NCBI GenBank assembly: GCA_944358385.1
Contig: CALVQW010000008.1
Location: forward strand, 17,228-81,227
Source: an uncultured Clostridia bacterium
GTDB taxonomy: Bacteria > Bacillota > Clostridia > Christensenellales > CAG-917
Direction: 5' to 3'
DNA length: 64,000 nucleotides
The position numbers were made by a program, and so were the translations under genes. The notes under the pieces were generated by a model. The model saw nothing but the letters and a program-made list of their open reading frames with translations. It was not told the origin of the DNA and ran no database searches. Below are positions 26,148 to 38,540 of this stretch, piece by piece. Numbering within the stretch: position 1 is the first letter of the stretch; every line of letters begins with the position of its first letter.

Positions 26148-26211
26148 ACTCAATTATATGCCGCCCCCGCCCGAACCGGAACGCACAAATGCCCGCACCA
26201 AAAAACCTACG

Positions 26212-26295
26212 GGGTTCAGGCGCGCTTGCTCGGAGTGTTCGTCGGGTTCAGGCGCGCTCGCTCAAAGTGTGCGTCGTGCTCAAAGAGTGTAAAAC
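26212..26295. repeat. 32-nt tandem direct repeat, about 2.6 copies
   Basis: GGGTTCAGGCGCGCTTGCTCGGAGTGTTCGTC (26212-26243), GGGTTCAGGCGCGCTCGCTCAAAGTGTGCGTC (26244-26275), and a partial copy GTGCTCAAAGAGTGTAAAAC. Confidence 0.8.
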
Positions 26296-26303
26296 GGGCT
26301 GAC

Positions 26304-26709
26304 GTCCTCTGACAGGGGAGTGAAAGTCCCCCTCCTCCCCTACGGGACTCCTCCCCCACTCGGAATAGAGTTCACTCCTCCCAAAATGCGGTACTGACTT
26401 TTTCATAAAGGCGCAAACCGCGTCTTTATGAAAACACCTCTTGAAAAAAGTTTGAGCCTCGCACTCACATAACCAAGCGGCGAACAGTACTCACTAAACG
26501 TCGCTCGTGGGGCGAGGAGGGCAACTCGACGCGCACGAGCGACGTTTCTACTTAATTTCTCATCTAGCTTGCGAGATCGCAGATTCGCGCCGCGACTTTC
26601 AAGCGCGAGCGCAAGACGCCCGCGGTGAAAGTTTGGCTTTGCGGCGCGTAGTTCCGTCTCCGAAAAAGAGACGTCATACTCAAATACGCCCGCTCAACCG
26701 CAAGTTCGC
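26304..26709 (-). repeat. unclassified multi-helix element, copy 2 (inverted relative to copy 1)
   Basis: rc(26459-26661) aligns ungapped to 7110-7312, and rc(26304-26391) aligns to 7348-7435. A different hairpin (26402-26432) replaces the copy-1 hairpin (7313-7331). Confidence 0.75.
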
Positions 26710-26819
26710 TGAACGCCGCCATTTGGATGAGCTGCGCGAAAAAGCCCCTTTCACAAAAGGGAGCGTACCAAATCGTACGTGACCGCATTGCGGAAGGGGC
26801 TTTGACAAAGCAGATCGCT
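26704..26819 (-). repeat. hairpin module H2 (lacks the outer 3' arm), terminator-like on the minus strand
   Basis: Its 5' arm TTCGCTGAACGCCGCCATTT is identical to the H3 arm. Helix AAAGCCCCTT (26741-26750) pairs with AAGGGGCTTT (26794-26803), and a minus-strand T-run follows. The apex is GCGTAC(26763-26768)..CGTACGT(26774-26780). Confidence 0.65.
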
Positions 26820-26835
26820 GGACTAACGCTAATTC

Positions 26836-26961
26836 GCTGAACGCCGCCATTTTGCGTCAGACAAGGAAGATGCCCTGCCGCGGGTGCGTGGCGTACTTTC
26901 CGTACGTGAGCAATCGCGGCAGGGCGTCTGACGCAGTATCACACAAAATGGTGGCGTTCAG
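26836..26961 (-). repeat. long-hairpin module H3 (126 nt) overlapping the stop codon of the AGPS-like gene
   Basis: Arms GCTGAACGCCGCCATTTTG and CAAAATGGTGGCGTTCAG with one G-T pair. Inner helices are CGTCAGAC/GTCTGACG and GCCCTGCCGCG/CGCGGCAGGGC. The apex is GCGTAC(26891-26896)..CGTACGT(26901-26907). Confidence 0.8.
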
Positions 26962-28757
26962 TCGAGTTCGGTGTGAACCACACCGGCCTTCTGCTGTTTC
27001 TCCTTCTCCTGTTCTCCGCCTTTCTCGTTCGCACCGAAGATACCGTTTTCGGTGAGGGTGCCGTCGAGGGCGAGGGTGCCGCCGGGGTTCATGAGACCTT
27101 CGGGATCGAAGTAGTGTTTGAGGGCTTTGTAGACGTTGTATTGCGAAGTGCCGATGGACTCTTCGAGGAAGGGGGCGAAGAGTTTGCCCACGCCGTGATG
27201 GTGGGAGAGCGCGGCACCCGACTTGGTGATGGCGTCGAGGATGCTGTAATGATACTTCTTGAAGGCTTCGAGATCGGTGGTCTTGATGACGAAGATGAAG
27301 TAGAGGTTGGCACCCTGCGGATAGCTGTGAGAAATGTGGGTGGTGCACATGGCGTCCGGCCATGCTTTGACCGCCTTTCTGACATCGAGATGCACCTGCG
27401 CCATATTGTCCCAGTTGACGGCGCACTCCAAGGTGTCGATGATGATGCCGTAGTCCTGGATGGTGTCCCTGAGATAAGGATCGGAGAATCTGCCGTGTTC
27501 CCACGCGGTGGTGACGTAGCCGGTGAGGGATATCGCGTTGTACTTGTGGGCGATCTTTCTCACGTTCTTTACGATGTTGCGCTGCAAGCCGTCCTCGCCG
27601 TCCGCGAAGCCGAGGAGGAGGCAACGCTTGTTGGGCTTGAAGCCCTTTGCCGCGAGCAGGGTGTTCAAGGGAGACTCCGCGATGCCGTACATATGCATCA
27701 TCATATCCGTCTCCTCCGCGTCCGAAAGGCGGAACACGGAAGGATAGCCGAACTCGCCCTGCATGACCTCGCGCATCGCCGCCATGCCATCCTCCCAAGT
27801 GGGGAACATATAGGAGAATTTGCGGTGTTTAGCGGACTTTTTGAACACTTTAAGTGTCACTTGCGTCAAAATGCCGAACGTCCCCTCGCTGCCCATCATG
27901 ATCTGGTCGATGTTGGGACCGGTGGCTTTGCGGGGCGCGGAATCCGTGCGGATCCTGCCCACGGGGGTGACATATTCCTGGCAGAGGACGAGGTCCGCCG
28001 CGCAGCCGTAGTAGGTGGAGTTCTGCCCGCTGCCGCGAGTCACCACCCAGCCGCCGACGCAGCTGTACTCGAAAGACTGCGGGAAATGTCCGCAGGTGAG
28101 GCGGTGTTTCGCGCCGAAGTTTTCGGGCGCGTGGTTGAGGATGTCCTCAAGGTCGGGACCGCTGATGCCGGGCTGGACGGTGATGGTCTGATTGACCTCG
28201 TTGAACGCCAGCACCTTGTTGAAATTCTTTCTGAGGTCGAGGAGCATGTTGGGAGAACACATACACTCCGTGCCTCTCGTCACGCTGGATCCGCCCGCAT
28301 AGACGTAGATGTAGATCTTGTGCTTTTTCGCAAACGCGACCAGCTTCTCGATGTCCTCGGTGGTGGAGGGATAAATGACGACGTCGGGGAGGTTCTCGAT
28401 GATGCCCTTTCTCAGGCGCATGATGTCCACCATGGTCTTGCCGTAGCAGACCTTGGCGCGAGTCAGCTCGTCCACTTCGACGTTGTCCGCGCCCAACATG
28501 TTGTTAAGCTCCTCGATCTGCTCCGCGGTGAGGCGGCTGGGGGCGTGGATGTCCACCACCTCGTTGCCGACGTCCACCATCTCTTTGAAGTCGTCGTCGG
28601 TGAGGTGGAATTTCTCCTTCACCAGCTTGTAAAGCCCCTCTTTGGGACGCTTGTAGGCGGCGGGATCTCCCCACTTCATTATGGAGCGGTAGCTGTCTTT
28701 GACGGGGGGATCGGTGATCCACTTGGGTTCGAACTCTTTGTAAGGTTTGTTGGACAT
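26958..28757 (-). CDS. FAD-linked oxidase, alkyl-dihydroxyacetonephosphate synthase (AGPS)-like
   Basis: ORF 26958..28841 trimmed to MSNKPYKEF behind the SD AAGGAGAAG. N-terminal extension with MKWGDP, FAD motif YAGGSSVTRG, and SHHHGVGK (the HHH loop typical of AGPS rather than GlcD-type SGEHGIG). Confidence 0.7.
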   Translation of the reverse strand: MSNKPYKEFEPKWITDPPVKDSYRSIMKWGDPAAYKRPKEGLYKLVKEKFHLTDDDFKEMVDVGNEVVDIHAPSRLTAEQIEELNNMLGADNVEVDELTRAKVCYGKTMVDIMRLRKGIIENLPDVVIYPSTTEDIEKLVAFAKKHKIYIYVYAGGSSVTRGTECMCSPNMLLDLRKNFNKVLAFNEVNQTITVQPGISGPDLEDILNHAPENFGAKHRLTCGHFPQSFEYSCVGGWVVTRGSGQNSTYYGCAADLVLCQEYVTPVGRIRTDSAPRKATGPNIDQIMMGSEGTFGILTQVTLKVFKKSAKHRKFSYMFPTWEDGMAAMREVMQGEFGYPSVFRLSDAEETDMMMHMYGIAESPLNTLLAAKGFKPNKRCLLLGFADGEDGLQRNIVKNVRKIAHKYNAISLTGYVTTAWEHGRFSDPYLRDTIQDYGIIIDTLECAVNWDNMAQVHLDVRKAVKAWPDAMCTTHISHSYPQGANLYFIFVIKTTDLEAFKKYHYSILDAITKSGAALSHHHGVGKLFAPFLEESIGTSQYNVYKALKHYFDPEGLMNPGGTLALDGTLTENGIFGANEKGGEQEKEKQQKAGVVHTELD

Positions 28758-28776
28758 GATCTTCTCCTTTTTGCGC

Positions 28777-29112
28777 TCAATATATGGTCGCCGTGGCGAT
28801 GAGATCGACATCCGTCCCCACGACGGACTTTGCGACCACATCTCCGCGGTGCAGTTTCTCGGTGACTCTGATGCCGTTGATGAAACGCATCAGTTCGGCT
28901 ATCTTGCTCTTGGGGATCTCGCCGTCCGTGCGGACGGGAAGCACGGGCATGCTCTCGAACGCGGTCGCCACGGTGGAACACACCGTACGCATGGGACAGG
29001 TCGCCTCCGCCTTGGCGAAAGCCTCCCCTTTCTTGCAGGTGTTGCCGGTGACGACTCCGTTCTCCACGGTCATGCGGCAGCCCTTTGGACACACTATGCA
29101 GACAAGTTCCAT
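28777..29112 (-). CDS. DUF1667 domain protein
   Basis: C-terminal 111 aa of ORF 28777..29433: MELVCIVCPKGCRMTVENGVVTGNTCKKGEAF. TGATG overlap with the upstream gene. Confidence 0.8.
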   Translation of the reverse strand: MELVCIVCPKGCRMTVENGVVTGNTCKKGEAFAKAEATCPMRTVCSTVATAFESMPVLPVRTDGEIPKSKIAELMRFINGIRVTEKLHRGDVVAKSVVGTDVDLIATATIY

Positions 29113-30359
29113 CAGTTCTCCTCCAATTCCACGCTGAGTTTGCTCCCCGCATTCAGCCCGAACGCGGAGAAATCCATCTCCACCCTCTGCATTTCGGGGG
29201 GACGCAGGAAGGCAAATTTCTTCTTGTACACCTCTTTGCCGTCCGCGAGGATGCGGAGAGTGGCGCGGTCCATGTCCTTCGCCGAACGGAAGAAGAACAC
29301 CACCCTGTCCTGCGGCTTGCCGAGATCTATGCGGTGAGGCACATATGAGAGTATCCCCTTGCCGCGCTCCAACCTCACGCACTTGCCGGAGGGAGCGGGA
29401 TGCGCCGCGTTCCTGCCCGCGTCGGCTGCGCACTCCGACACGTAGTCCACAAGGTCGAACACGTTGAGTGCGTTGCCCGCAGAGAACACTCCGTCCACAG
29501 ATGTCATATAAGTTTGGTCACAGTCCGGACCTTTGGTGAAAGCGTTTATCTTCACGCCCATGCTTTCTGCAAGCTCGTTTTCGGGGATGAGACCGACGGA
29601 AAGTATGAGCGCGTCGCACTCCACGATGCGTTCCGTGCCTTTAACGGGTTTCATCCTGTCGTCCACCTCGGCGACTTCCACGGCGGTGAGCCTGTCCACG
29701 CCGAATACGCGCGTGACGGTGTGGGAGAGGTGGAGCGGGATGCCGAAATCGTGCAGGCACTGGTGTATGTTGCGGGTGAGTCCGCTGGGTTCGGGCTTCA
29801 CCTCATAGACGCCCTCCACCTCCGCGCCTTCGAGGGTGAGGCGGCGCGCCATGATGAGACCGATGTCGCCGCTGCCGAGGATGACGCACTTTTTGGCGGG
29901 CATCTTGCCCATCAGGTTGACGAAGTTCTGCGCCGTACCCGCCGTGAACACGCCCGCGGGACGGGTGCCTTGGATGAGCACCTGTTTCGCCGTCCTCTCA
30001 CGGCAGCCCGTGGCGAGGACGATGGACTTTGCCTTGAAATCCAGCATCCCCTCCCTGCTCACGCAGGTGACGGCGAATCCCTCCCCTTCCTTCACCAGCC
30101 GGGTGACGAAAGTGAGGGCGTAGCAGTCCACGGGAAGGGCTTTCACGAAGTCGATGTATCTCTCGGCGTACTCCGGTCCCGCCAGCTTCTCGCCGAAACG
30201 TATGAGACCGAAGCCGTCGTGGACGCACTGTTTGAGGATGCCGCCCAGCCTCGCCTCGCGCTCAATGACCGCCGTCTTTGCGCCTGCCTTGCACGCGCTC
30301 TCGGCAGCCGCCAGCCCCGCCGGACCGCCGCCTATGACTATGACGTCGTACTCTTTCAT
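29112..30359 (-). CDS. NAD(P)/FAD-dependent (pyridine nucleotide-disulfide type) oxidoreductase
   Basis: YDVIVIGGGPAGLAAA and a second dinucleotide motif, VILGSGDIGL. Confidence 0.85.
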   Translation of the reverse strand: MKEYDVIVIGGGPAGLAAAESACKAGAKTAVIEREARLGGILKQCVHDGFGLIRFGEKLAGPEYAERYIDFVKALPVDCYALTFVTRLVKEGEGFAVTCVSREGMLDFKAKSIVLATGCRERTAKQVLIQGTRPAGVFTAGTAQNFVNLMGKMPAKKCVILGSGDIGLIMARRLTLEGAEVEGVYEVKPEPSGLTRNIHQCLHDFGIPLHLSHTVTRVFGVDRLTAVEVAEVDDRMKPVKGTERIVECDALILSVGLIPENELAESMGVKINAFTKGPDCDQTYMTSVDGVFSAGNALNVFDLVDYVSECAADAGRNAAHPAPSGKCVRLERGKGILSYVPHRIDLGKPQDRVVFFFRSAKDMDRATLRILADGKEVYKKKFAFLRPPEMQRVEMDFSAFGLNAGSKLSVELEEN

Positions 30360-32092
30360 TCACTCACCTCCGCCGCTTTCTTGCTGTCTCCGTATAGAAT
30401 GACGCTGCCCTCGTCCCCTTTCAGGACGTCCTCGGGCTTTATCCCCTCGTGTTCGGCGATGATCTTCACCACCAAGGGGGAGCAGAACCCGCCCTGACAT
30501 CTCCCCATGCCGGGACGCACGCGGCGTTTGATGCCGTCCACCGTGCACACCTTGAGGGGGGAATCGAGAGCGTCGATGATCTCTCCTTTGCTCACTTCCT
30601 CACATCTGCATACGATCTCGCCGTAGGCGGGATTGCGCCTGATGTACTCCGCGCGCTCCTCATCCGACAGCCCCGCGAGCTTGGGGGTGTGTCTGCGCAC
30701 GGGATCGAAGCCCGTTCTCTCCTTCGCGCCGAGCATCTCCTTCACCCAATCTCGCACGTCGCAGGCGATGGCGGGAGCGGCGGTGATGCCTGGGGACTGT
30801 ATGCCCGCGGTCTCTATGACATTCTCCGTGAAAATGCCCTTGCGCACCACGAAATCCTCCTCATAGGTCGCCGCGCGCACCCCCGCGAAATAGGTGATGA
30901 TGTCTGCTGCGGAAAGTTCGTCCGCCGCCACCTTCTGCTTGCGTATGATGGCGTTGACGTCGTCGAGCGAAGTGGACGTATCCTCGCGGTAAGGCTGTTC
31001 CACGGCGTTGGGGCCTACAAGTATGTTGCCGTCCACGGTGCGCATCACACCGCCGCCCTTGGTGTGTCCCACCGCCGCGTGCGTCTGCTCCTGCGCCTCC
31101 TTGGGCAGGGGCGCGAAATAGCTGCGCGCGAATGAGGACAGCGCGTAATAAGCCTTCTTCTTGTCAAGGATGAGATCGGTGCCCTTGCGGGGATGTATGG
31201 TGAAAGTCCTGTCTCCCGCCATCTCCGCGATGACGTCGCTGTACGCGCCCGCCGCGTTGACCACGATGCGGGGACGCACCCTGCCGCGGTTGGTGGAGAC
31301 GGAAACTATCCTGCCGTCCTTGACTTCCATGCCCTCCACCATGGTGTTGAGGGAGATCTTCGCACCGTTCTCGACGGCGTTCTCGGCAAGAGCCACGGTC
31401 ACCTTGTAGGGGGACACCACACCCGCGGACGCCATATACACCGCACCCGTCAGCCACTTGGGGGGATGCGGCTCTATCTTCTTCATCTCGGCGGGAGACT
31501 TGAAGCTCATGTCCGGCACGCCGAGGATCTTGCCCTTCAACAGCATGAGAGGAGCGATGATGTATCTCTCCCACTTGGTGCTGAACATGAAGGTCTGCGC
31601 CCACCTCTCGAAGTCGCAGCCAAGCTCCTTGCACAGCCCCTCGTACATCGCGTTGCCGCGCAGGACGTAATGCAGCTTGAGCTGACCGAGATGCAGGTCT
31701 ATGCCGGGATGTATGCACCCGTCATTGCGGGAGGACGCGCCCGTGGCGACGTCGTTCGCCTTCTCGACGAGCAGCACCTCGATGTCCAGACGCGAGAGTT
31801 CGCGCGCGAGAGCGCACCCCATGATTCCGCCGCCCACGATGAGGACGTCGGGAGTGCTGCCTTCGAGGGCGTCGTCACGAAGGGAAGGCTTCTTGGGCTG
31901 TTCGCCGAAACCTTTGAGCTTTATGTCGTTGAGCACGCCCAGCGACTTCTTGCTCACCGCCGCCACGCCGCAGCGGTAGATGAGATCCCAGCTTTCCAGC
32001 TCACCCGAAAGACGCACGCATCCGCGGTATTCCTCCACCTTGACGGAAGGCGCGATCTTATGAACTCTTTTTGCGATAGCTTTCAAATTCAT
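30356..32092 (-). CDS. FAD-dependent glycerol-3-phosphate dehydrogenase/oxidase-like protein with a BFD-like [2Fe-2S] domain and an N-terminal extension
   Basis: DVLIVGGGIMGCALAREL begins only about 90 aa into the ORF. The C-terminal part has CRCEEVSKGEI....GMGRCQGGFC. Confidence 0.8.
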   Translation of the reverse strand: MNLKAIAKRVHKIAPSVKVEEYRGCVRLSGELESWDLIYRCGVAAVSKKSLGVLNDIKLKGFGEQPKKPSLRDDALEGSTPDVLIVGGGIMGCALARELSRLDIEVLLVEKANDVATGASSRNDGCIHPGIDLHLGQLKLHYVLRGNAMYEGLCKELGCDFERWAQTFMFSTKWERYIIAPLMLLKGKILGVPDMSFKSPAEMKKIEPHPPKWLTGAVYMASAGVVSPYKVTVALAENAVENGAKISLNTMVEGMEVKDGRIVSVSTNRGRVRPRIVVNAAGAYSDVIAEMAGDRTFTIHPRKGTDLILDKKKAYYALSSFARSYFAPLPKEAQEQTHAAVGHTKGGGVMRTVDGNILVGPNAVEQPYREDTSTSLDDVNAIIRKQKVAADELSAADIITYFAGVRAATYEEDFVVRKGIFTENVIETAGIQSPGITAAPAIACDVRDWVKEMLGAKERTGFDPVRRHTPKLAGLSDEERAEYIRRNPAYGEIVCRCEEVSKGEIIDALDSPLKVCTVDGIKRRVRPGMGRCQGGFCSPLVVKIIAEHEGIKPEDVLKGDEGSVILYGDSKKAAEVSE

Positions 32093-33599
32093 CGCTCAAC
32101 CTCACATGATCCGTTTTCCCCACCTGAGTACGCGGCAGCGCGTCCAGCGGGATCACATATCTCGGCTCGTGCCACTTGGAAAGTTGGTCCACGATGTGCC
32201 GTTTTAATTGCTTTATCTGCTCATCGGAAGGTTTACCCGTCACAAACAGCGCGATGAAAGGCTTGTTCTGCTCTCTCACCTCGATCGCCGCGCACTGTCC
32301 CACGAAGGGCAGCTCCACCGCCGCACGCTCTATCTCGGCGGGAAACACGTTCACTCCCGATATCTTTATCAGCCTCTTTTTCCTGCCCATGAAGTAGAGC
32401 GAGCCATCCTCGGTGGCGCGGAACATATCCCCCGTCCTCAGCCACTTTTCGCCGCCGACGTCAAGATAGGTCGCCGCCGTCGCTTCCTCGTCGTCGAGAT
32501 AGCCGAGCATGAGCTGGTTGCCCGCGAGCAGCAGCTCGCCCGTCTCTCCCGCGGGGACCTCTCTCCCCTCCTCGTCCACTATGAGCGCGCGCATATTTAC
32601 GAGGGGTTTGCCCAGCACCGCGCCGCCCGCCTTTTCGGGAGAAAGCACGCACACGCTGCCCGTCTCCGTCAACCCATAGCCCGGGCAAAGCACGCAGTCG
32701 CTGCCCGCCTCCCGCATACGCTTGTCGAAACGCTTTTCAAGCTCCGCATCCACGGTGTCGCCGCCCACGTACACCCTGTGCAGGGAACGCACGTTCTCCC
32801 CGCGAAACTCCGGCTCGGCGAGCAGTTTGTTCACCATGCCCGGCACAGCGATCATGAGGGTGACTAAGTTGCGCGCAATGGCGCGCACCGCCTTGTCCGG
32901 CTTGAACACGGGCATGAGCACGGGTGCGGCGGCGATGCAGATGACGGTGTGCAGCCCCACGAACAGCCCGAAACCGTGAAACATCGGGAGAGCGGTCAGC
33001 ATCCTGTCCTTCTCGCCGTAATGCTCTTCTTCCAAAGTGGCGAGCAGGTTGCCCGTGAGCGCGTTGACCGCCGATGCGGAAAGCACCACCGTCTTGGCGT
33101 CGCCGGAAGTCCCGCCCGAACGCATATACACCGCAGGCTCGCTCCCGTCCCCTTCATATGGCGTGAACGCGGCGGGACGCGGGAGACCGAGATAGCCGTA
33201 AGCGAGGAAGGGGCAGACCACCCTCTTCACTCCTTTCAGCCCTCTGCCCAGACGCTTGAAATTGATGTCGGAAAGAAAAACCACTTTGGGATGCTGCTCG
33301 GCGCAAGCCCTCTCGAACTCCCCTCTCGCCATGAGCGGATGGATCATGGACGCCACCGCACCGAGGCGGGAGACCGCATAAAACGCGACGATGCCCTGCT
33401 CAATGGTGGGCAGCGCGAGCATCACGACGTCCCCCTTTCTCACTCCGAGCGCGGCGAGACCTCCCGCCACTCTCTCCACTTCCCCGCAAAGCCTTCGGAA
33501 AGTCATGTGTCTGCCCCCTCTGATCAACGCCGTCCACTCCTCATTTTTGGGACGATAGGCGCGCATATAATCGTATAGGGACATTCTCTCCGTTATCAT
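32058..33599 (-). CDS. AMP-dependent synthetase/ligase (acyl-CoA synthetase-like)
   Basis: ORF 32058..33866 trimmed to MITERMSLYDY; an alternative ATG lies at 33584. AMP-binding motifs YMRSGGTSGDAKTV, GYGLTETG and the C-terminal GK. Confidence 0.8.
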   Translation of the reverse strand: MITERMSLYDYMRAYRPKNEEWTALIRGGRHMTFRRLCGEVERVAGGLAALGVRKGDVVMLALPTIEQGIVAFYAVSRLGAVASMIHPLMARGEFERACAEQHPKVVFLSDINFKRLGRGLKGVKRVVCPFLAYGYLGLPRPAAFTPYEGDGSEPAVYMRSGGTSGDAKTVVLSASAVNALTGNLLATLEEEHYGEKDRMLTALPMFHGFGLFVGLHTVICIAAAPVLMPVFKPDKAVRAIARNLVTLMIAVPGMVNKLLAEPEFRGENVRSLHRVYVGGDTVDAELEKRFDKRMREAGSDCVLCPGYGLTETGSVCVLSPEKAGGAVLGKPLVNMRALIVDEEGREVPAGETGELLLAGNQLMLGYLDDEEATAATYLDVGGEKWLRTGDMFRATEDGSLYFMGRKKRLIKISGVNVFPAEIERAAVELPFVGQCAAIEVREQNKPFIALFVTGKPSDEQIKQLKRHIVDQLSKWHEPRYVIPLDALPRTQVGKTDHVRLSDEFESYRKKSS

Positions 33600-33605
33600 G
33601 TTTCG

Positions 33606-33635
33606 ATTATAATGCGTACACGCGCGCACAGTCAA
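33606..33635 (-). promoter_or_regulatory. strong sigma-A type promoter (TTGACT-18-TATAAT) abutting the acyl-CoA ligase start
   Basis: Minus strand: TTGACT (33635..33630), an 18-nt spacer, TATAAT (33611..33606), then cgaaac and the ATG at 33599. Confidence 0.55.
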
Positions 33636-33819
33636 TATGCAAATCCCCGTTCGGGCAGGATAAAAATACAAAAAAAACAATTTGTCCGCACTTGCGGGAG
33701 AGGGGGGCGTCCCTCTCCTTCCGCGATCCTCTTCGCTGCATCTCCCGAAAAATTTTCCGACAAGGCAGGTATATATCCCGCGCACGGTGTCGATAATCCC
33801 GTCAAACGGAGGTAACACC

Positions 33820-34482
33820 ATGAGCAAAATATCGGTTGCCGCAAAGAAAGTCGGCGATTTCATCAAGAAAAATGCGTTCTATCTTCTCATCCTGCTCTGC
33901 ATCGCGTCCGTAGCGACCATCATCGCGCTTGCAGCCAGCGGCGATTTCGGAGGAGAAACCGATCCGGGTGCGGAAGTCGTGCTGCCCGATCCCGACGACG
34001 GCGGCAACGATGAAAAACCCGACGAACCCGACAAGCCCGATCAGCCCGATCAGCCCGAAAAGCCCGTCCTCTCCTTCGTCTCGCCCGTGAGCGGCACGGT
34101 GTCCCAGAGTTACAGCGATTCCGCTCTGGTCTGGAACTCCACCCTCGGACAGTACGAAGTGCATCTCGGCGTCGATTTCACGGGTGAGGATCTTTCCGTC
34201 CTCGCCTCGGAAGCGGGCACCGTGAGCGACATCATCAACGACCCTCTGGACGGGGTGTGCGTAGTCATCGACCACGCCGACGGCTATCAGACGCGCTACT
34301 GCTCTCTGGACGAGAACGTGCAGGTGGCAAAGGGCGACACCGTGGAAAAGGGACAGATCATCGGCAACATGGCAGCCACACGCGGCTCGGAGAGCCTTGC
34401 CGGCAACCATCTCCACTTCGAGATGTTGAAGGACGGCGAACTCATCGATCCCCTCGACGTGCTCGTCCTTGAAGAAAAATAA
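33820..34482 (+). CDS. M23/LytM family metallopeptidase, membrane-anchored
   Basis: ORF 33682..34482 trimmed to MSKISVAAKK behind the SD ACGGAGG. TM helix, acidic P/D/E linker, HLGVDF and GNHLHFEM motifs. Confidence 0.85.
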   Translation: MSKISVAAKKVGDFIKKNAFYLLILLCIASVATIIALAASGDFGGETDPGAEVVLPDPDDGGNDEKPDEPDKPDQPDQPEKPVLSFVSPVSGTVSQSYSDSALVWNSTLGQYEVHLGVDFTGEDLSVLASEAGTVSDIINDPLDGVCVVIDHADGYQTRYCSLDENVQVAKGDTVEKGQIIGNMAATRGSESLAGNHLHFEMLKDGELIDPLDVLVLEEK

Positions 34483-34662: not shown

Positions 34663-36276
34663 TCACTTGACAGAGGCTCTGACATACACCTCGTTGACGG
34701 GGAGTTTGGCGGGAAAGACTGCGTCCAGCAGCTCCTTGCTCACGGCGCACTTCTTTGCAAAGATGAGGTTGACCACGGGAGTCACCACCATGCTCGCCGC
34801 CATGGTCACAACGCCTATGAAGGGAGACTGCCCTATGCCCGCCTTGAACGCCTCGCCGAATGTGGGATCGCCGCCGTCCGCGCGCAGCACGAAGTAGCCA
34901 AGCCCCACTATGAGCGAGAAGGTGAGCAGCAGCGACGTGATGATGGAGGCATACGCTCCCGCTTTGTTCGCCTTCCTGCTGTACAGCCCGTAGACGTACG
35001 GTCCCATAAAGCATCCCGCGATCGCGCCCCAGCTCAGGCTCATCATGCTGACTATGGCGTCCACTTCCACAATGGCAAGCACCGCGGACACCGCGACGAA
35101 CACCAGACACAACACGCGGATCATGATGTTGAGGTCGCTTTCGGGGGCTTTCTTCCTGATGTATCCCTTGTAAAAGTCCACCGTGACAGTGGAGCTTGAG
35201 GACAGCGACAGCGCGGCGAGCGTGGACATGGACGCCGAGAAGAGAAGCACGATGATGAGTCCGAGCAATGCGGAAGGCAGATTCTCCACTATCATGGTGG
35301 GGACGAGCCTGTCGAAGTTGCCGTCCGGCACCTCGCTGACAAAGCGGGTGATCATGCTGCCCATGAAATACGCGCCGCAGCCGACTATGGCGGAGAACAC
35401 CGTGGAGATGACCGCTCCCCTTCTTATCGCCGCCTTGTCCTTTATGGCATAGAACTTGTGTATGGACTGCGGCATCCCCCACATCCCGAAGGAGGTGAGA
35501 CAGATGAGGATGATGATGTTAAAGAGCTGATTGTCCAGGAACGTCCCGCCCTCCGGGGTGGTGGCGTTGGGGATGAGGGTGAGGTCGGGATCGGCAAACA
35601 GCGCGCCCAATCCCTCTCCCCAATTCATCTCCGGGGTGCCGAGGAGCATTAACACCGTGACTATGATGCCCACGATCATGATCATGCCCTGTATGAAATC
35701 CGTGATGGTGGTGGCGAAATAGCCGCCCAGGAAGAGATAGACTGCGGTGAGAGCGGCGAGTATGAGTATGCACCACATCGCGTCTATGCCGAGTGCCGCC
35801 TCGAAGATGTAGCCCATGCCCTGATAGACGGAGGCGGAATAAGGCAGCAGGAAGATGAAGATGGTGAGTGCGGAGACCAGCTTTATATACTTGCTCTCAT
35901 ACCTTTTCTCGAAAAATTCCGGCATCGTGCGCGCGCCGAGCGCGGTGGTCATATTCTTGGTGCGGGAGGCGAGCACCAGCCACGCGGCAAGCGTGCCGAT
36001 GAACATATTGCCCACGCCGATCCACACCGCGGACAGCCCGAAATTCCACCCGAACTTGCCCGCATATCCCACAAAGACGACGGCGGAAAAATAAGTCGCG
36101 CCGTAGGCGAACGCGCTCAGCCACCCTCCCACGCCCTTGTTGGCGAACATAAAGCCTTCCACGCTGGTGCTTTTGCGGCGCGTGATGAGAGCCACGGCGA
36201 GTATGACCGCCATGTAGATGCCGAAGATGAGCCATTGCGGCCAGACCTCTGTCGTTGCAGAGATGAGCGAGAGCAT
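34663..36276 (-). CDS. sodium:solute symporter (SSS) family transporter
   Basis: ORF 34663..36381 trimmed to MLSLISATTEVWPQW behind the SD GGAGGAAGGA. About 13 hydrophobic helices, with FANKGVGGWLSAFAYGATYFSA. Confidence 0.85.
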   Translation of the reverse strand: MLSLISATTEVWPQWLIFGIYMAVILAVALITRRKSTSVEGFMFANKGVGGWLSAFAYGATYFSAVVFVGYAGKFGWNFGLSAVWIGVGNMFIGTLAAWLVLASRTKNMTTALGARTMPEFFEKRYESKYIKLVSALTIFIFLLPYSASVYQGMGYIFEAALGIDAMWCILILAALTAVYLFLGGYFATTITDFIQGMIMIVGIIVTVLMLLGTPEMNWGEGLGALFADPDLTLIPNATTPEGGTFLDNQLFNIIILICLTSFGMWGMPQSIHKFYAIKDKAAIRRGAVISTVFSAIVGCGAYFMGSMITRFVSEVPDGNFDRLVPTMIVENLPSALLGLIIVLLFSASMSTLAALSLSSSSTVTVDFYKGYIRKKAPESDLNIMIRVLCLVFVAVSAVLAIVEVDAIVSMMSLSWGAIAGCFMGPYVYGLYSRKANKAGAYASIITSLLLTFSLIVGLGYFVLRADGGDPTFGEAFKAGIGQSPFIGVVTMAASMVVTPVVNLIFAKKCAVSKELLDAVFPAKLPVNEVYVRASVK

Positions 36277-36437
36277 TCCTTCCTCCCCGCACGTTCGGAC
36301 ATATGTCGAGACGTGCATCCCGTCCGCCGTCCTTTCTGCGCATATGTCCACTCCTTCACGAGTGAAATTGCACATATGCACATTTCAGCAGACGAAAACG
36401 TATGTTTAAATGCGCATTTCTGCGCATCGTCATTTGC

Positions 36438-37226
36438 TCACATGAGCATATCGGGTATGTCGCGCACCGCTTCCAGGACGTAATCGGGCTTCACTCTGCT
36501 CCGCTTCGCGTCCTCTGCGGACGTCTCGCCGGAAAGCACCAGCACCGAAACGAAACCGCAGTTCTTGCCGAAGGCGATGTCCGTATATAGCCTGTCCCCC
36601 ACCATGGCGATCTTGCGCGGCGGGAGATTGTATTTGAGCGCGATCCTCTGCCCCGCCGTCCTGTGCGGTTTGCCCATGACGAGGTCAGGCTCTCTGCCCA
36701 CGGTGAGTCTGATCGCCGAGAGCATCGCGCCCACATCGGGCATGGGACACCCTTCCGCGGGACAGAAGTTGTCGGGATGGGTGGCGATGAAGGGCAGACC
36801 GTCGTGTACGAAACGGCAGAATTTGTACAGCCTGTCATAGGTGAGCGAAGTGTCGAAGCCGATGACAGCAAGGTCGGGGGACTCCTCGACAAGCTCTATG
36901 CCGTACATCTCGAACTCCGCGCGCAAACGGTCGTTGCCGAGCAGAAACACCTTCTTGCCGCGGTAGTTGTCCAAAAGATATTCGCAGGTCACCTGCCCGC
37001 TGGTGTATATCTCGTCGGAATAGACGCGCAGCCCCAAGTTGTTGAGGCGGGCGATGTAGTCGGTGTGCATACGGGAGCTGTTGTTGGTGAAAAAACATAT
37101 GCGCTTGCCCATCTCGCGCAGGCGGTTGACCGCGGCGAAAGAACCCTCGATCTCCCTGTCCCCTATGTAGACAGTGCCGTCGAGGTCGAACAAAAACAAT
37201 TCCACGTCTCTTATGTTCTTTGCCAT
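36438..37226 (-). CDS. HAD-IIA family hydrolase (NagD/AraL-like sugar phosphatase)
   Basis: ORF trimmed to MAKNIRDVELFLFDLDGTVY. It has FFTNNSS and the GDRLYTDI motifs. Confidence 0.85.
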   Translation of the reverse strand: MAKNIRDVELFLFDLDGTVYIGDREIEGSFAAVNRLREMGKRICFFTNNSSRMHTDYIARLNNLGLRVYSDEIYTSGQVTCEYLLDNYRGKKVFLLGNDRLRAEFEMYGIELVEESPDLAVIGFDTSLTYDRLYKFCRFVHDGLPFIATHPDNFCPAEGCPMPDVGAMLSAIRLTVGREPDLVMGKPHRTAGQRIALKYNLPPRKIAMVGDRLYTDIAFGKNCGFVSVLVLSGETSAEDAKRSRVKPDYVLEAVRDIPDMLM

Positions 37227-37251
37227 TCCGTCCTCTGTGAAAGTCAAGCCC

Positions 37252-38400
37252 TCAGGCGACCGCATCCTCCCGTCTCTCTGCCCTGTTCCCTCCCGCGCGC
37301 ATGGCGGCTAGGAAACCCGTTCCCGCGGCAAACCCGAGCAGACCGCCTGTCTTTTCGCCCGCGAGAGCCATGGCGTGCATCACGTCCTCGGAAGTGAACG
37401 CGCTCTTCATCCAGAAACCCGCGTCATCGTACATCCTCCGCCACCGTCTCCCCGCCCCTCCGAGGTCGCAGGAAGCAAGCTCGGCGATGAGATCCATACG
37501 ATATTCTCCGAGAATATAATTTATTCTAAAATAACCGCTCGCGCCGAAAATGTCAAACGCTTGCAGGATGTTCCCTCTTTCCCCGCCCGTCAGCCGCGCG
37601 AATTCGTCCAGAGCGGCGTCGTGATCGGCGGGCAGAAGGGTGTCTATGGCGGGAGAGGAAAGATAGGCTTTGTAAAACGCCGCAAGCGCGCACGCCGCCA
37701 CAAAGACATACTCTCCTCTGCGCCTGGGACGCTTCCCCGCAGATAGCGCGAGCAGACGCAGCACCTCCGCGGTGACGTCGGGAGCGTACGTCCTTCCGTC
37801 CGCGCCCGACCGCAGTACGTTGACGGCAAGTTCCGTGGCAGAAGAGCCGCAGTCAAGAAGAGTCGTCTCCCTTCTCTCGCCTTCCGGCGCAAACACCTTC
37901 TCGGCGCACACGTCCTCGAATCTCTTGACGGGCAGTGCGAAAAGAAGTCCCGCCGCCGCAGCCTTCGCATCCTTGGGCGCACGGGAAAGCACGTTCTCGT
38001 CCAGACACACCGCTTTCACGCCCCCTTCCGCGAGCAGCCCGTCCTCGCAGGGTACGGAGGGGAAAAGTACGCACTCCGCCCTGCGGCTCCGCGCCGCAGC
38101 CACCGCGGCAGCCGCCGCTTCCGCTCCGCCCGCGCCCACCACCGCAAGGCAGTTCTCCTCCGCGTCGCAAACCTCCGCCGCCCCCTTCACGGTCATGCGC
38201 AGCCCCGCACGCTTCCCCTCCTCGCCGAGGGTGCGCGCAAGGTCGATGCCGTCTCCGTCCGCAACGAGCAGCACCCTGCCTCCGCCCGTAAGTTCGTCAA
38301 CAAAGCGGGGGAACGCCCCGCACAATCCTTTGCCCGTGAATATCTGCGCTCCGCCCGTCTCGAAGGCGGCTTTGGGAAAACACTCGATCTCGCGCCGCAT
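37252..38400 (-). CDS. hypothetical protein with a degenerate DHQS/glycerol-1-phosphate-dehydrogenase-like pattern
   Basis: ORF trimmed to MRREIECF behind the SD GGAGGT. VLLVADGDG...LAVVGAGGAEAAAAAV...FPSVPCEDG follows the spacing of the G1PDH/AraM nucleotide and metal motifs, but the usual residues are replaced. Confidence 0.4.
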   Translation of the reverse strand: MRREIECFPKAAFETGGAQIFTGKGLCGAFPRFVDELTGGGRVLLVADGDGIDLARTLGEEGKRAGLRMTVKGAAEVCDAEENCLAVVGAGGAEAAAAAVAAARSRRAECVLFPSVPCEDGLLAEGGVKAVCLDENVLSRAPKDAKAAAAGLLFALPVKRFEDVCAEKVFAPEGERRETTLLDCGSSATELAVNVLRSGADGRTYAPDVTAEVLRLLALSAGKRPRRRGEYVFVAACALAAFYKAYLSSPAIDTLLPADHDAALDEFARLTGGERGNILQAFDIFGASGYFRINYILGEYRMDLIAELASCDLGGAGRRWRRMYDDAGFWMKSAFTSEDVMHAMALAGEKTGGLLGFAAGTGFLAAMRAGGNRAERREDAVA

Positions 38401-38540
38401 ACGCACCTCCGCGACCATCCTAACGCTTCTCCCCGCGCGGAAAACGACGTATGAGCGCGAAAAGAGGGAGAGAAGCGGAAAACATGACAAAACGCGCCCG
38501 CGTTGTCATCCTCCACTGTTGAAAGATCGCGGCAGGGCGG

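Follow-up and report, generated by a model that had tools for sequence, protein, structure and literature searches.

An AGPS-like flavoenzyme operon in an uncultured Clostridia bacterium is a lineage-specific variant of a widespread orphan module

What does an anaerobic gut bacterium do with a relative of alkylglycerone-phosphate synthase (AGPS) that is encoded beside enzymes for the oxidation of glycerol phosphate? The question is raised by an operon in a 64,000-nucleotide stretch of DNA, here called the window, from an uncultured Clostridia bacterium of the Christensenellales lineage CAG-917 (contig CALVQW010000008.1, positions 17,228 to 81,227). The host genome is a gut metagenome-assembled genome of 1.77 Mb that is 96.5% complete. 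An earlier note on the window proposed that the genes form a possible ether-lipid route. The operon is real and tightly organised, and it is a lineage-specific variant, with a ligase gained and a kinase relocated, of a widespread orphan module built around an AGPS-like oxidase, a glycerol-phosphate-type dehydrogenase and an FGGY-family kinase.

The operon and its AGPS-like oxidase

The earlier note described five packed, co-directional minus-strand genes running from 33599 to 26958, and this description was confirmed in every particular, motifs included. The features are, in the order of transcription:

33606..33635, minus strand: sigma-70-type promoter-like site TTGACT-18-TATAAT, 11 of 12 matches, directly upstream of the ligase start
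32058..33599, minus strand: ANL-family adenylate-forming ligase, 513 aa, AMP-binding (216 bits) and AMP-binding_C domains, first gene of the operon
30356..32092, minus strand: FngA', 578 aa, DAO and Fer2_BFD [2Fe-2S] domains, long-form glycerol-phosphate-type FAD dehydrogenase
29112..30359, minus strand: FngB', 415 aa, Pyr_redox_2 flavoprotein partner with a QCVH motif
28777..29112, minus strand: FngC', 111 aa, cysteine-rich small subunit, DUF1667 (95 bits)
26958..28757, minus strand: AGPS-like flavoenzyme, 599 aa, FAD_binding_4 and FAD-oxidase_C domains
26745..26762, minus strand: terminator-like hairpin and T-run about 200 nt past the last stop codon of the operon, a weak pattern match

The ligase and FngA' genes overlap by 35 nt if the ATG at 32092 is the start. 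The FngA'/FngB' and FngB'/FngC' junctions are overlaps of 4 nt and 1 nt, and a 19-nt gap separates FngC' from the oxidase.

Comparison with solved structures was used to place the oxidase. Its alignment to Dictyostelium AGPS (2uuu) covers residues 44-559 and scores 237 bits (E = 4e-69), and guinea-pig AGPS (4bby) follows with 207 bits (E = 3.5e-60). Glycolate oxidase scores 79 bits (E = 2.5e-21) and D-lactate dehydrogenase (D-LDH) 58 bits, with GlcD/D-LDH-type matches spanning 1e-21 to 1e-15. These comparisons put the oxidase in the AGPS branch and not in the GlcD/D-LDH branch, as the earlier note had read it. The window protein aligns over nearly its full length with AGPS (EC 2.5.1.26; Dictyostelium 2uuu, guinea pig 4bby and Myxococcus xanthus MXAN_1676) and shares its fold and domain order, and the approximately 120 residues ahead of the FAD domain correspond to the AGPS-type N-terminal extension. 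Both the SHHHGVGK and the MKWGDP motif are present, and W29, G30, P32 and H519-H521 are invariant in 11 homologues. Homologue conservation begins already at residues 4-13, which marks the ATG at 28757 as the start; only the C-terminal 34 residues or so are lineage-specific. The oxidase in the closest genome record, that of Candidatus Limadaptatus stercoravium, is 91% identical.

Arg352, Arg447, Tyr508 and His544-546 (Dictyostelium numbering) are named as catalytically important in AGPS (PMC3509576). Alignment to 2uuu, with the +3 numbering offset of that chain taken from our own alignment, matches R352 to R343, R447 to R430, Y508 to Y486 and His544-546 to H519-H521 in the window oxidase. All of these residues are invariant across 11 members of the clade. 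The same set is retained in 117 of 123 representatives of the AGPS-like superfamily, whereas the GlcD-like outgroup reads RTHFEN at these positions. The histidine loop had been taken as the mark of a true AGPS, a role it does not fill, since it is present in those same 117 representatives. Because the catalytic set is superfamily-wide, it indicates common chemistry rather than orthology. Judged by these residues, the oxidase very probably uses AGPS-type flavin-N5 covalent chemistry on a dihydroxyacetone phosphate (DHAP) derivative.

Phylogenetic analysis was performed on 120 of 150 representatives at 50% identity together with the window protein and two distant homologues. GlcD-like paralogues were sought in the host genome for the outgroup and none was found; a distant GlcD-like homologue from genome G040 was used. 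FastTree placed the window protein within a 15-row clade of the 123-row tree with a support of 100. A separate 99-row clade (support 98) holds P0260, the only sequence in the tree that is labelled eukaryotic, the acyltransferase::AGPS fusion P0177 and P0148, whose gene neighbours are an acyltransferase and an SDR. An IQ-TREE mixture model on 49 rows gave an SH-like approximate likelihood ratio test (SH-aLRT) value of 100 both for the window side (12-15 rows) and for the true-AGPS side (16 rows), and the two sides are not sisters. The oxidase thus does not group with the lactate and glycolate oxidases, in keeping with the earlier note, and it falls outside the clade of eukaryotic and acyltransferase-linked bacterial AGPS, which departs from it. 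By this placement the window oxidase is not an orthologue of true AGPS. Its identity to representatives outside its own clade is about 31-36%. The true-AGPS clade has acyltransferase and SDR partners, as in the P0177 fusion and the P0148 neighbourhood, whereas the window clade is partnered by a glycerol-phosphate dehydrogenase and a kinase, and its hosts are strict anaerobes in which alkyl lipids are unreported.

Fusions of three kinds occur in the superfamily: NUDIX::AGPS-like (P0127 and P0135), acyltransferase::AGPS (P0177) and AGPS-like::GlpD (P0139, P0150, P0183 and P0196). The NUDIX fusions belong to the subclade that is sister to the window protein and may point to a precursor linked to a nucleotide diphosphate.

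Conserved partners of the oxidase

Gene neighbourhoods were compared at 80 species-level loci from Clostridia, Spirochaetota, Thermotogae, Mollicutes-like Bacilli, Chloroflexota, Thermodesulfobacteriota and others. At least 598 anaerobe genomes, counted at species level, carry the module; isolates among its carriers are Faecalicatena contorta, Clostridium sediminicola and Caloranaerobacter ferrireducens. In all five distant genomes compared, the oxidase gene directly follows a triad of long-form DAO+BFD, Pyr_redox_2 and DUF1667 genes, and four of the five also carry a 513-520-aa FGGY kinase. Among the 80 loci the triad is found in about 60 and the kinase in about 45. Adjacency that recurs in about 60 of 80 species-level genomes of several phyla means that the clustering far exceeds chance. 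A GlpD-type dehydrogenase stands in for the triad beside the same kinase in Chloroflexota, in Thermodesulfobacteriota and in a sister subclade represented by P0126, and fusions of the AGPS-like protein to GlpD (about 1100 aa) account for four independent 50%-identity representatives. The tie between the oxidase and a glycerol-phosphate-oxidising triad that the earlier note had drawn is therefore real and deeply conserved, with fusions to a dehydrogenase in other phyla.

Two regulator clusters recur, one in 17 loci (the scanned member is a TetR protein) and one in 10 loci (the scanned member is a GntR protein with a FadR_C/FCD ligand domain). Family clustering found no other gene family in more than 10 of the 80 loci besides the module genes and the regulators, and no transporter, aldolase, isomerase, acyltransferase, reductase or lipid-synthesis gene is recurrent among them. 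The lack of a recurrent transporter fits a membrane-soluble or endogenous substrate. With the conserved third partner, a non-GlpK FGGY kinase frequently joined by TetR or GntR regulators, the module looks like a system for salvage, remodelling or catabolism rather than for de novo ether-lipid synthesis. A gene with a weak 4HBT thioesterase Pfam match follows the P0139 fusion.

The closest published analogue, likened to the module by gene content, is the PA3026-PA3025-PA3024 (+PA3023) operon of Pseudomonas aeruginosa, which belongs to the GliR regulon and is of unknown function (Kotecka et al. 2021, PMC8151288). It likewise combines an FAD oxidoreductase, assigned by KEGG to the alkylglycerone-phosphate synthase step, with a GlpD homologue and an FGGY kinase. 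It differs in its aerobic host, in having a GlpD-type instead of an FngABC-type dehydrogenase and in its AraC-type activator. GliR induces the operon more than 100-fold, alongside a lipid kinase and a phospholipase C, and the authors proposed a KEGG-based route from glycerol to alkylglycerone phosphate (PMC8151288). No published assay of an enzyme from the window clade was found in the literature searched.

The triad belongs with FngABC, the three-subunit ferredoxin/NAD glycerol 3-phosphate (G3P) oxidoreductase. Schut, Poole and Adams (October 2026, PMC13689815) describe purification of a Pyrococcus homologue and a QC(I/V)H motif in the B subunit. The window triad has all three FngABC subunit families, encoded side by side and with translational coupling. 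Its B subunit reads GGILKQCVHDG, the QCVH form of the motif, and its DUF1667 subunit has cysteines at positions 5, 8, 12, 26 and 39. It differs from FngABC in the A subunit, which adds a BON-like N-terminal domain, and in the AGPS-like gene that follows the triad; a term search of PMC13689815 returned no such partner.

FngA' consists of the BON-like region (residues ~1-60, nt ~31910-32092), a DAO domain (82-443) and a BFD [2Fe-2S] domain (493-547). Its closest solved relative is L-alpha-glycerophosphate oxidase (4x9m, E = 5.9e-30), and it scores 194 bits on the glycerol-3-phosphate oxidase model NF033460, which has a cut-off of 460. The host genome encodes three FngA homologues. The canonical FngA (479 aa, contig C26) has its own B and C subunits, lacks the N-terminal extension and is 35% identical to FngA'; no GlpK-like kinase was seen beside it. 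The presence of this canonical, extension-free FngA identifies the window triad as a specialised paralogue and not the housekeeping G3P enzyme. The third homologue (G000:C14:5218-6990, minus strand, 590 aa) is a second long form with the same N-terminal extension, is 54% identical to FngA' and has no adjoining B or C subunits. An APH-family phosphotransferase gene (L114:6987-7826) lies upstream of it, and the two may be another kinase and dehydrogenase pair with a different substrate.

The approximately 85 extra N-terminal residues are present in all AGPS-linked FngA' proteins compared and missing from the canonical FngA. When the extensions were scanned alone, BON (PF04972) was the top Pfam match in 8 of 10 (E = 7.6e-6 to 0.12). 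An AlphaFold model of the extension (18 sequences) has an H-E-E-H-E, or alpha-beta-beta-alpha-beta, order with a predicted local distance difference test score of about 95 over residues 1-60. Among the leading Foldseek matches of this model are OsmY, two DolP structures, Kbp and BonA (probabilities of 0.99-1.0), and the title of structure entry 7a2d ties DolP to phospholipid binding. These results are suggestive of a BON-like, phospholipid-binding-type domain, which would fit a dehydrogenase that acts at the membrane on a lipid-bearing substrate. A predicted complex of the AGPS-like protein (residues 1-565) with FngA' (residues 1-430) had a score of 0.00, which counts neither way on binding. 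The BON-like domain, the FngABC identification, the count of FngA paralogues and the PlsY observation described below were added by this analysis.

The in-cluster kinases of other genomes score 130-148 bits on the GlpK model TIGR01311 (cut-off 590), and their best match is XylB at 238-240 bits, below its cut-off of 380. The cluster kinase is about equidistant from solved xylulokinase, autoinducer-2 (AI-2) kinase, gluconate kinase and glycerol kinase. By these scores the module kinase is not GlpK. Plain glycerol catabolism was rejected as the role of the module on this ground and because the genome has a separate canonical FngABC. The sole module-type kinase of the host lies elsewhere in the genome (G000:C18:27019-28662, plus strand; L021:10020-11663), where it stands by itself with spo0A on one side and ypeB/sleB on the other. 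Its sequence shares 44-51% identity with in-cluster kinases and 26% with the other FGGY kinase of the genome; its identity to the in-cluster kinases of related genera, which share 69-88% among themselves, is about 50%. That other FGGY kinase (511 aa) and a 415-aa class II aldolase-domain protein form a rhamnulose/fuculose-type pair (C16, L118:4527-7306, minus strand).

The ligase had been taken as a component of the route, and it proved to be a lineage-specific addition that adjoins the module in 5 of 80 loci (L033-L036 and L083), all of them in Christensenellales; as a defining part of the module it was rejected. The order in these loci is ligase-FngA'B'C'-kinase-oxidase, with the kinase missing in L033 and L034, the two nearest to the window. 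The best NCBIfam matches of the window ligase are long-chain fatty-acid-CoA ligase subfamilies (244 bits, cut-offs of at least 476). Its solved relatives comprise nonribosomal peptide synthetase A-domains and 4-coumarate, malonyl and fatty-acyl ligases, all at about 1e-35 to 1e-44. As these relatives cover many substrate classes, the ligase is best described from its matches as a generic ANL enzyme.

The operon is bordered upstream by a divergent M23 peptidase gene and downstream by an intergenic repeat followed by murC. The promoter-like site (33635-33606) is the sole strong site on the minus strand within 26200-34000. Two neighbouring terminator-like hairpins lie at 26745-26779 on the minus strand, and the number of such hairpins in the region equals the shuffled-sequence expectation. 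Beyond the peptidase gene, which sets them apart from the operon, three further minus-strand genes (34663-38490) encode an SSF sodium:solute symporter (34663-36381), a HAD-IIA phosphatase (36438-37265) and a 412-aa protein (37252-38490) for which no Pfam match was found at 1e-5.

Candidate functions of the module

The module may act on a C1-substituted, most likely lipid-bearing, glycerol phosphate through a kinase, a dehydrogenase and then an AGPS-type exchange or cleavage at C1. We hold this reading tentatively and give it slightly less than an even chance. The dedicated non-GlpK FGGY kinase, unlinked in the host, would phosphorylate a 1-O-substituted glycerol at sn-3. FngA'B'C' would then oxidise C2 to a DHAP-type ketone and pass the electrons to NAD and ferredoxin as in FngABC, with the BON-like head of FngA' tethering the complex at a membrane or lipid. 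The AGPS-like enzyme would break the C1-O bond and install a fatty alcohol, a fatty acid or water by Tyr-assisted enolisation, a covalent flavin-N5 adduct and acid/base catalysis by the HHH loop. An alpha-alkoxy ketone cannot shed its substituent via beta-elimination, which offers a rationale for retaining this unusual flavin chemistry. Overall, glycerolipid backbones with ester or ether links would be interconverted or cleaved without O2, and DHAP or acyl-/alkyl-DHAP would return to metabolism. In Christensenellales the task of the ligase would be to activate the fatty acid set free or used in the process; it could serve either direction, by recycling a displaced acid or supplying one.

What the sequences show directly are the domain families, catalytic residues, synteny, fusions and tree position; which substrate is used, how the steps are ordered and which way they run we infer from these. 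A lipid substrate is hinted at by the BON-like head, the FadR_C/FCD regulator, the 4HBT neighbour and the co-induction in P. aeruginosa. Ether making (acyl out, alcohol in), ether breaking (alkyl out, water or acid in) and ester trimming cannot be told apart from sequence. The ether-breaking direction, in which an alkylglycerol would pass through alkyl-G3P and alkyl-DHAP to DHAP or acyl-DHAP plus a fatty alcohol, is rather unlikely when taken by itself.

Several points weigh against a lipid-bearing substrate and its turnover at C1. An alkoxide is a poor leaving group, which makes ether cleavage chemically demanding, and soluble sugars and polyols are the substrates for which FGGY kinases are known. 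The module-type kinase lies outside the operon in the host genome. The BON matches score 13-27 bits against a Pfam cut-off of 27, the Foldseek E-values for the BON-like model are weak (4e-3 to 0.1) and the FadR_C score barely exceeds the generic FCD score. Enzymes of this clade are known only as sequences, so the proposed substrate is a deduction throughout. The P. aeruginosa operon deletion mutant had no phenotype (PMC8151288), and FngABC paralogues beside sugar kinases are read as polyol enzymes in PMC13689815.

The biosynthetic ether-lipid branch of the earlier note was considered against this background. In that scheme the ligase would make acyl-CoA, acyl-DHAP would arise by an unlinked acyltransferase or from lysophosphatidic acid oxidised by FngA'B'C', and the AGPS-like enzyme would turn this into alkyl-DHAP by swapping acyl for a fatty alcohol, with the freed fatty acid recycled by the ligase. 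The intact AGPS catalytic set, the oxygen independence of the AGPS reaction and the retention of the ligase with the module over several Christensenellales genera, at ligase identities down to 46-50%, all speak for it. So does the unusual first acylation in this family, where PlsY is missing and a 426-aa PF01553 acyltransferase specific to the lineage is present. Against it, the oxidase falls outside the clade of eukaryotic and acyltransferase-/SDR-linked bacterial AGPS, neither an acyltransferase nor a reductase recurs in the 80 loci, and 75 of those loci have no ligase. De novo synthesis also gives the kinase no role, and TetR/GntR control is typical for substrate-induced operons. The search of the genome for a fatty-acyl reductase, which the earlier note had called for, yielded nothing convincing; the best PF07993 match (40 bits) lies inside a generic 520-aa epimerase-type SDR. 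The AGPS relationship and the link to the triad survive from the earlier proposal, whereas the clade, the ligase, the reductase and the kinase context go against it. Ether-lipid synthesis thus stays in play among several readings, though another is better supported; we regard it as doubtful. A further rival is the catabolism of soluble polyols, in which the kinase would phosphorylate a small polyol or ketose, FngA'B'C' would oxidise the polyol phosphate and the AGPS-like enzyme would be an isomerase, epimerase or lyase on an alpha-hydroxy-ketone phosphate. The kinase is XylB-like (238 bits against the 380 cut-off) and equally near to xylulokinase, AI-2 kinase and gluconate kinase, and some loci have GntR/UTRA regulators and glycoside hydrolases nearby. 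According to PMC13689815, Clostridia frequently have several FngABC paralogues adjoining sugar kinases, and about one-third of FngABC homologues are proposed to take polyols other than glycerol. Yet the 80 loci have no recurrent transporter, aldolase or isomerase, the catalytic set is the one used to displace an O-linked substituent from C1 of a DHAP derivative, FngA' has the BON-like N-terminal domain and its nearest relatives are glycerophosphate oxidases; the polyol reading remains a serious rival that we consider unlikely. It is improbable that the AGPS-like protein is a true redox dehydrogenase like GlcD or D-LDH that feeds electrons into FngB'C' or oxidises a second substrate alongside G3P. 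The VAO/PCMH fold is common to dehydrogenases and the gene always adjoins an electron-bifurcating module. Its R/R/Y/HHH set is nonetheless that of the non-redox AGPS where the GlcD-like outgroup has RTHFEN, the module occurs equally with GlpD-type dehydrogenases that lack FngBC, and the direct fusions are to GlpD and not to Fe-S or Etf partners.

The acyltransferase side of the biosynthetic scheme was examined genome-wide. The host encodes a Cmk-PlsC fusion and the 426-aa PF01553 protein (G000:C10:270-1547, minus strand; L116/L122). The PF01553 protein is family-specific (16 of 18 family genomes) and has an unassigned C-terminal part of about 250 aa. Searches for PlsY (PF02660) found none in the host genome, in any of the 18 other family genomes or in 3 more ligase-bearing relatives, of which one is a complete chromosome. 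All 12 other families of the order do have PlsY, and the host genome encodes PlsX. The first acylation step of the lineage is therefore unusual, and a DHAP or acyl-CoA route stays conceivable; the PF01553 protein may perform this step. The PF06050 query recognised no PlsA-like plasmalogen synthase in the genome, its only match being a 284-aa reading frame.

The module as a replacement for PlsY was tried and rejected. Outside this family, 25 of 40 module-bearing genomes do have PlsY, and a member of the host family (G016) has neither PlsY nor the module, so the module does not fill the PlsY gap and the PF01553 protein is the better candidate.

Significance for ether-lipid metabolism

Alkylglycerol monooxygenase (AGMO) is described as the sole known enzyme that cleaves 1-O-alkyl glycerol ethers (PMC7911779, PMC9192799). 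If the cleavage direction holds, the module would act on the same bond class. AGMO is an O2- and tetrahydrobiopterin-dependent membrane enzyme that is unrelated in sequence, whereas the window module needs no oxygen. The combination of AGPS-type chemistry with an electron-bifurcating dehydrogenase makes the module a candidate for the O2-free making, swapping and breaking of ether bonds. Ether glycerolipids account for about one-fifth of the phospholipids of mammals, and anoxic sediments are rich in them. If the cleavage route is true, gut and sediment anaerobes could use or remodel host, dietary and microbial ether lipids. Even with a non-ether substrate, solving the module would give a function to a large AGPS-superfamily branch that is so far an orphan, to a specialised class of the recently described FngABC enzymes and to an orphan FGGY kinase family, and would also explain the PA3026-PA3024 operon of P. 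aeruginosa.

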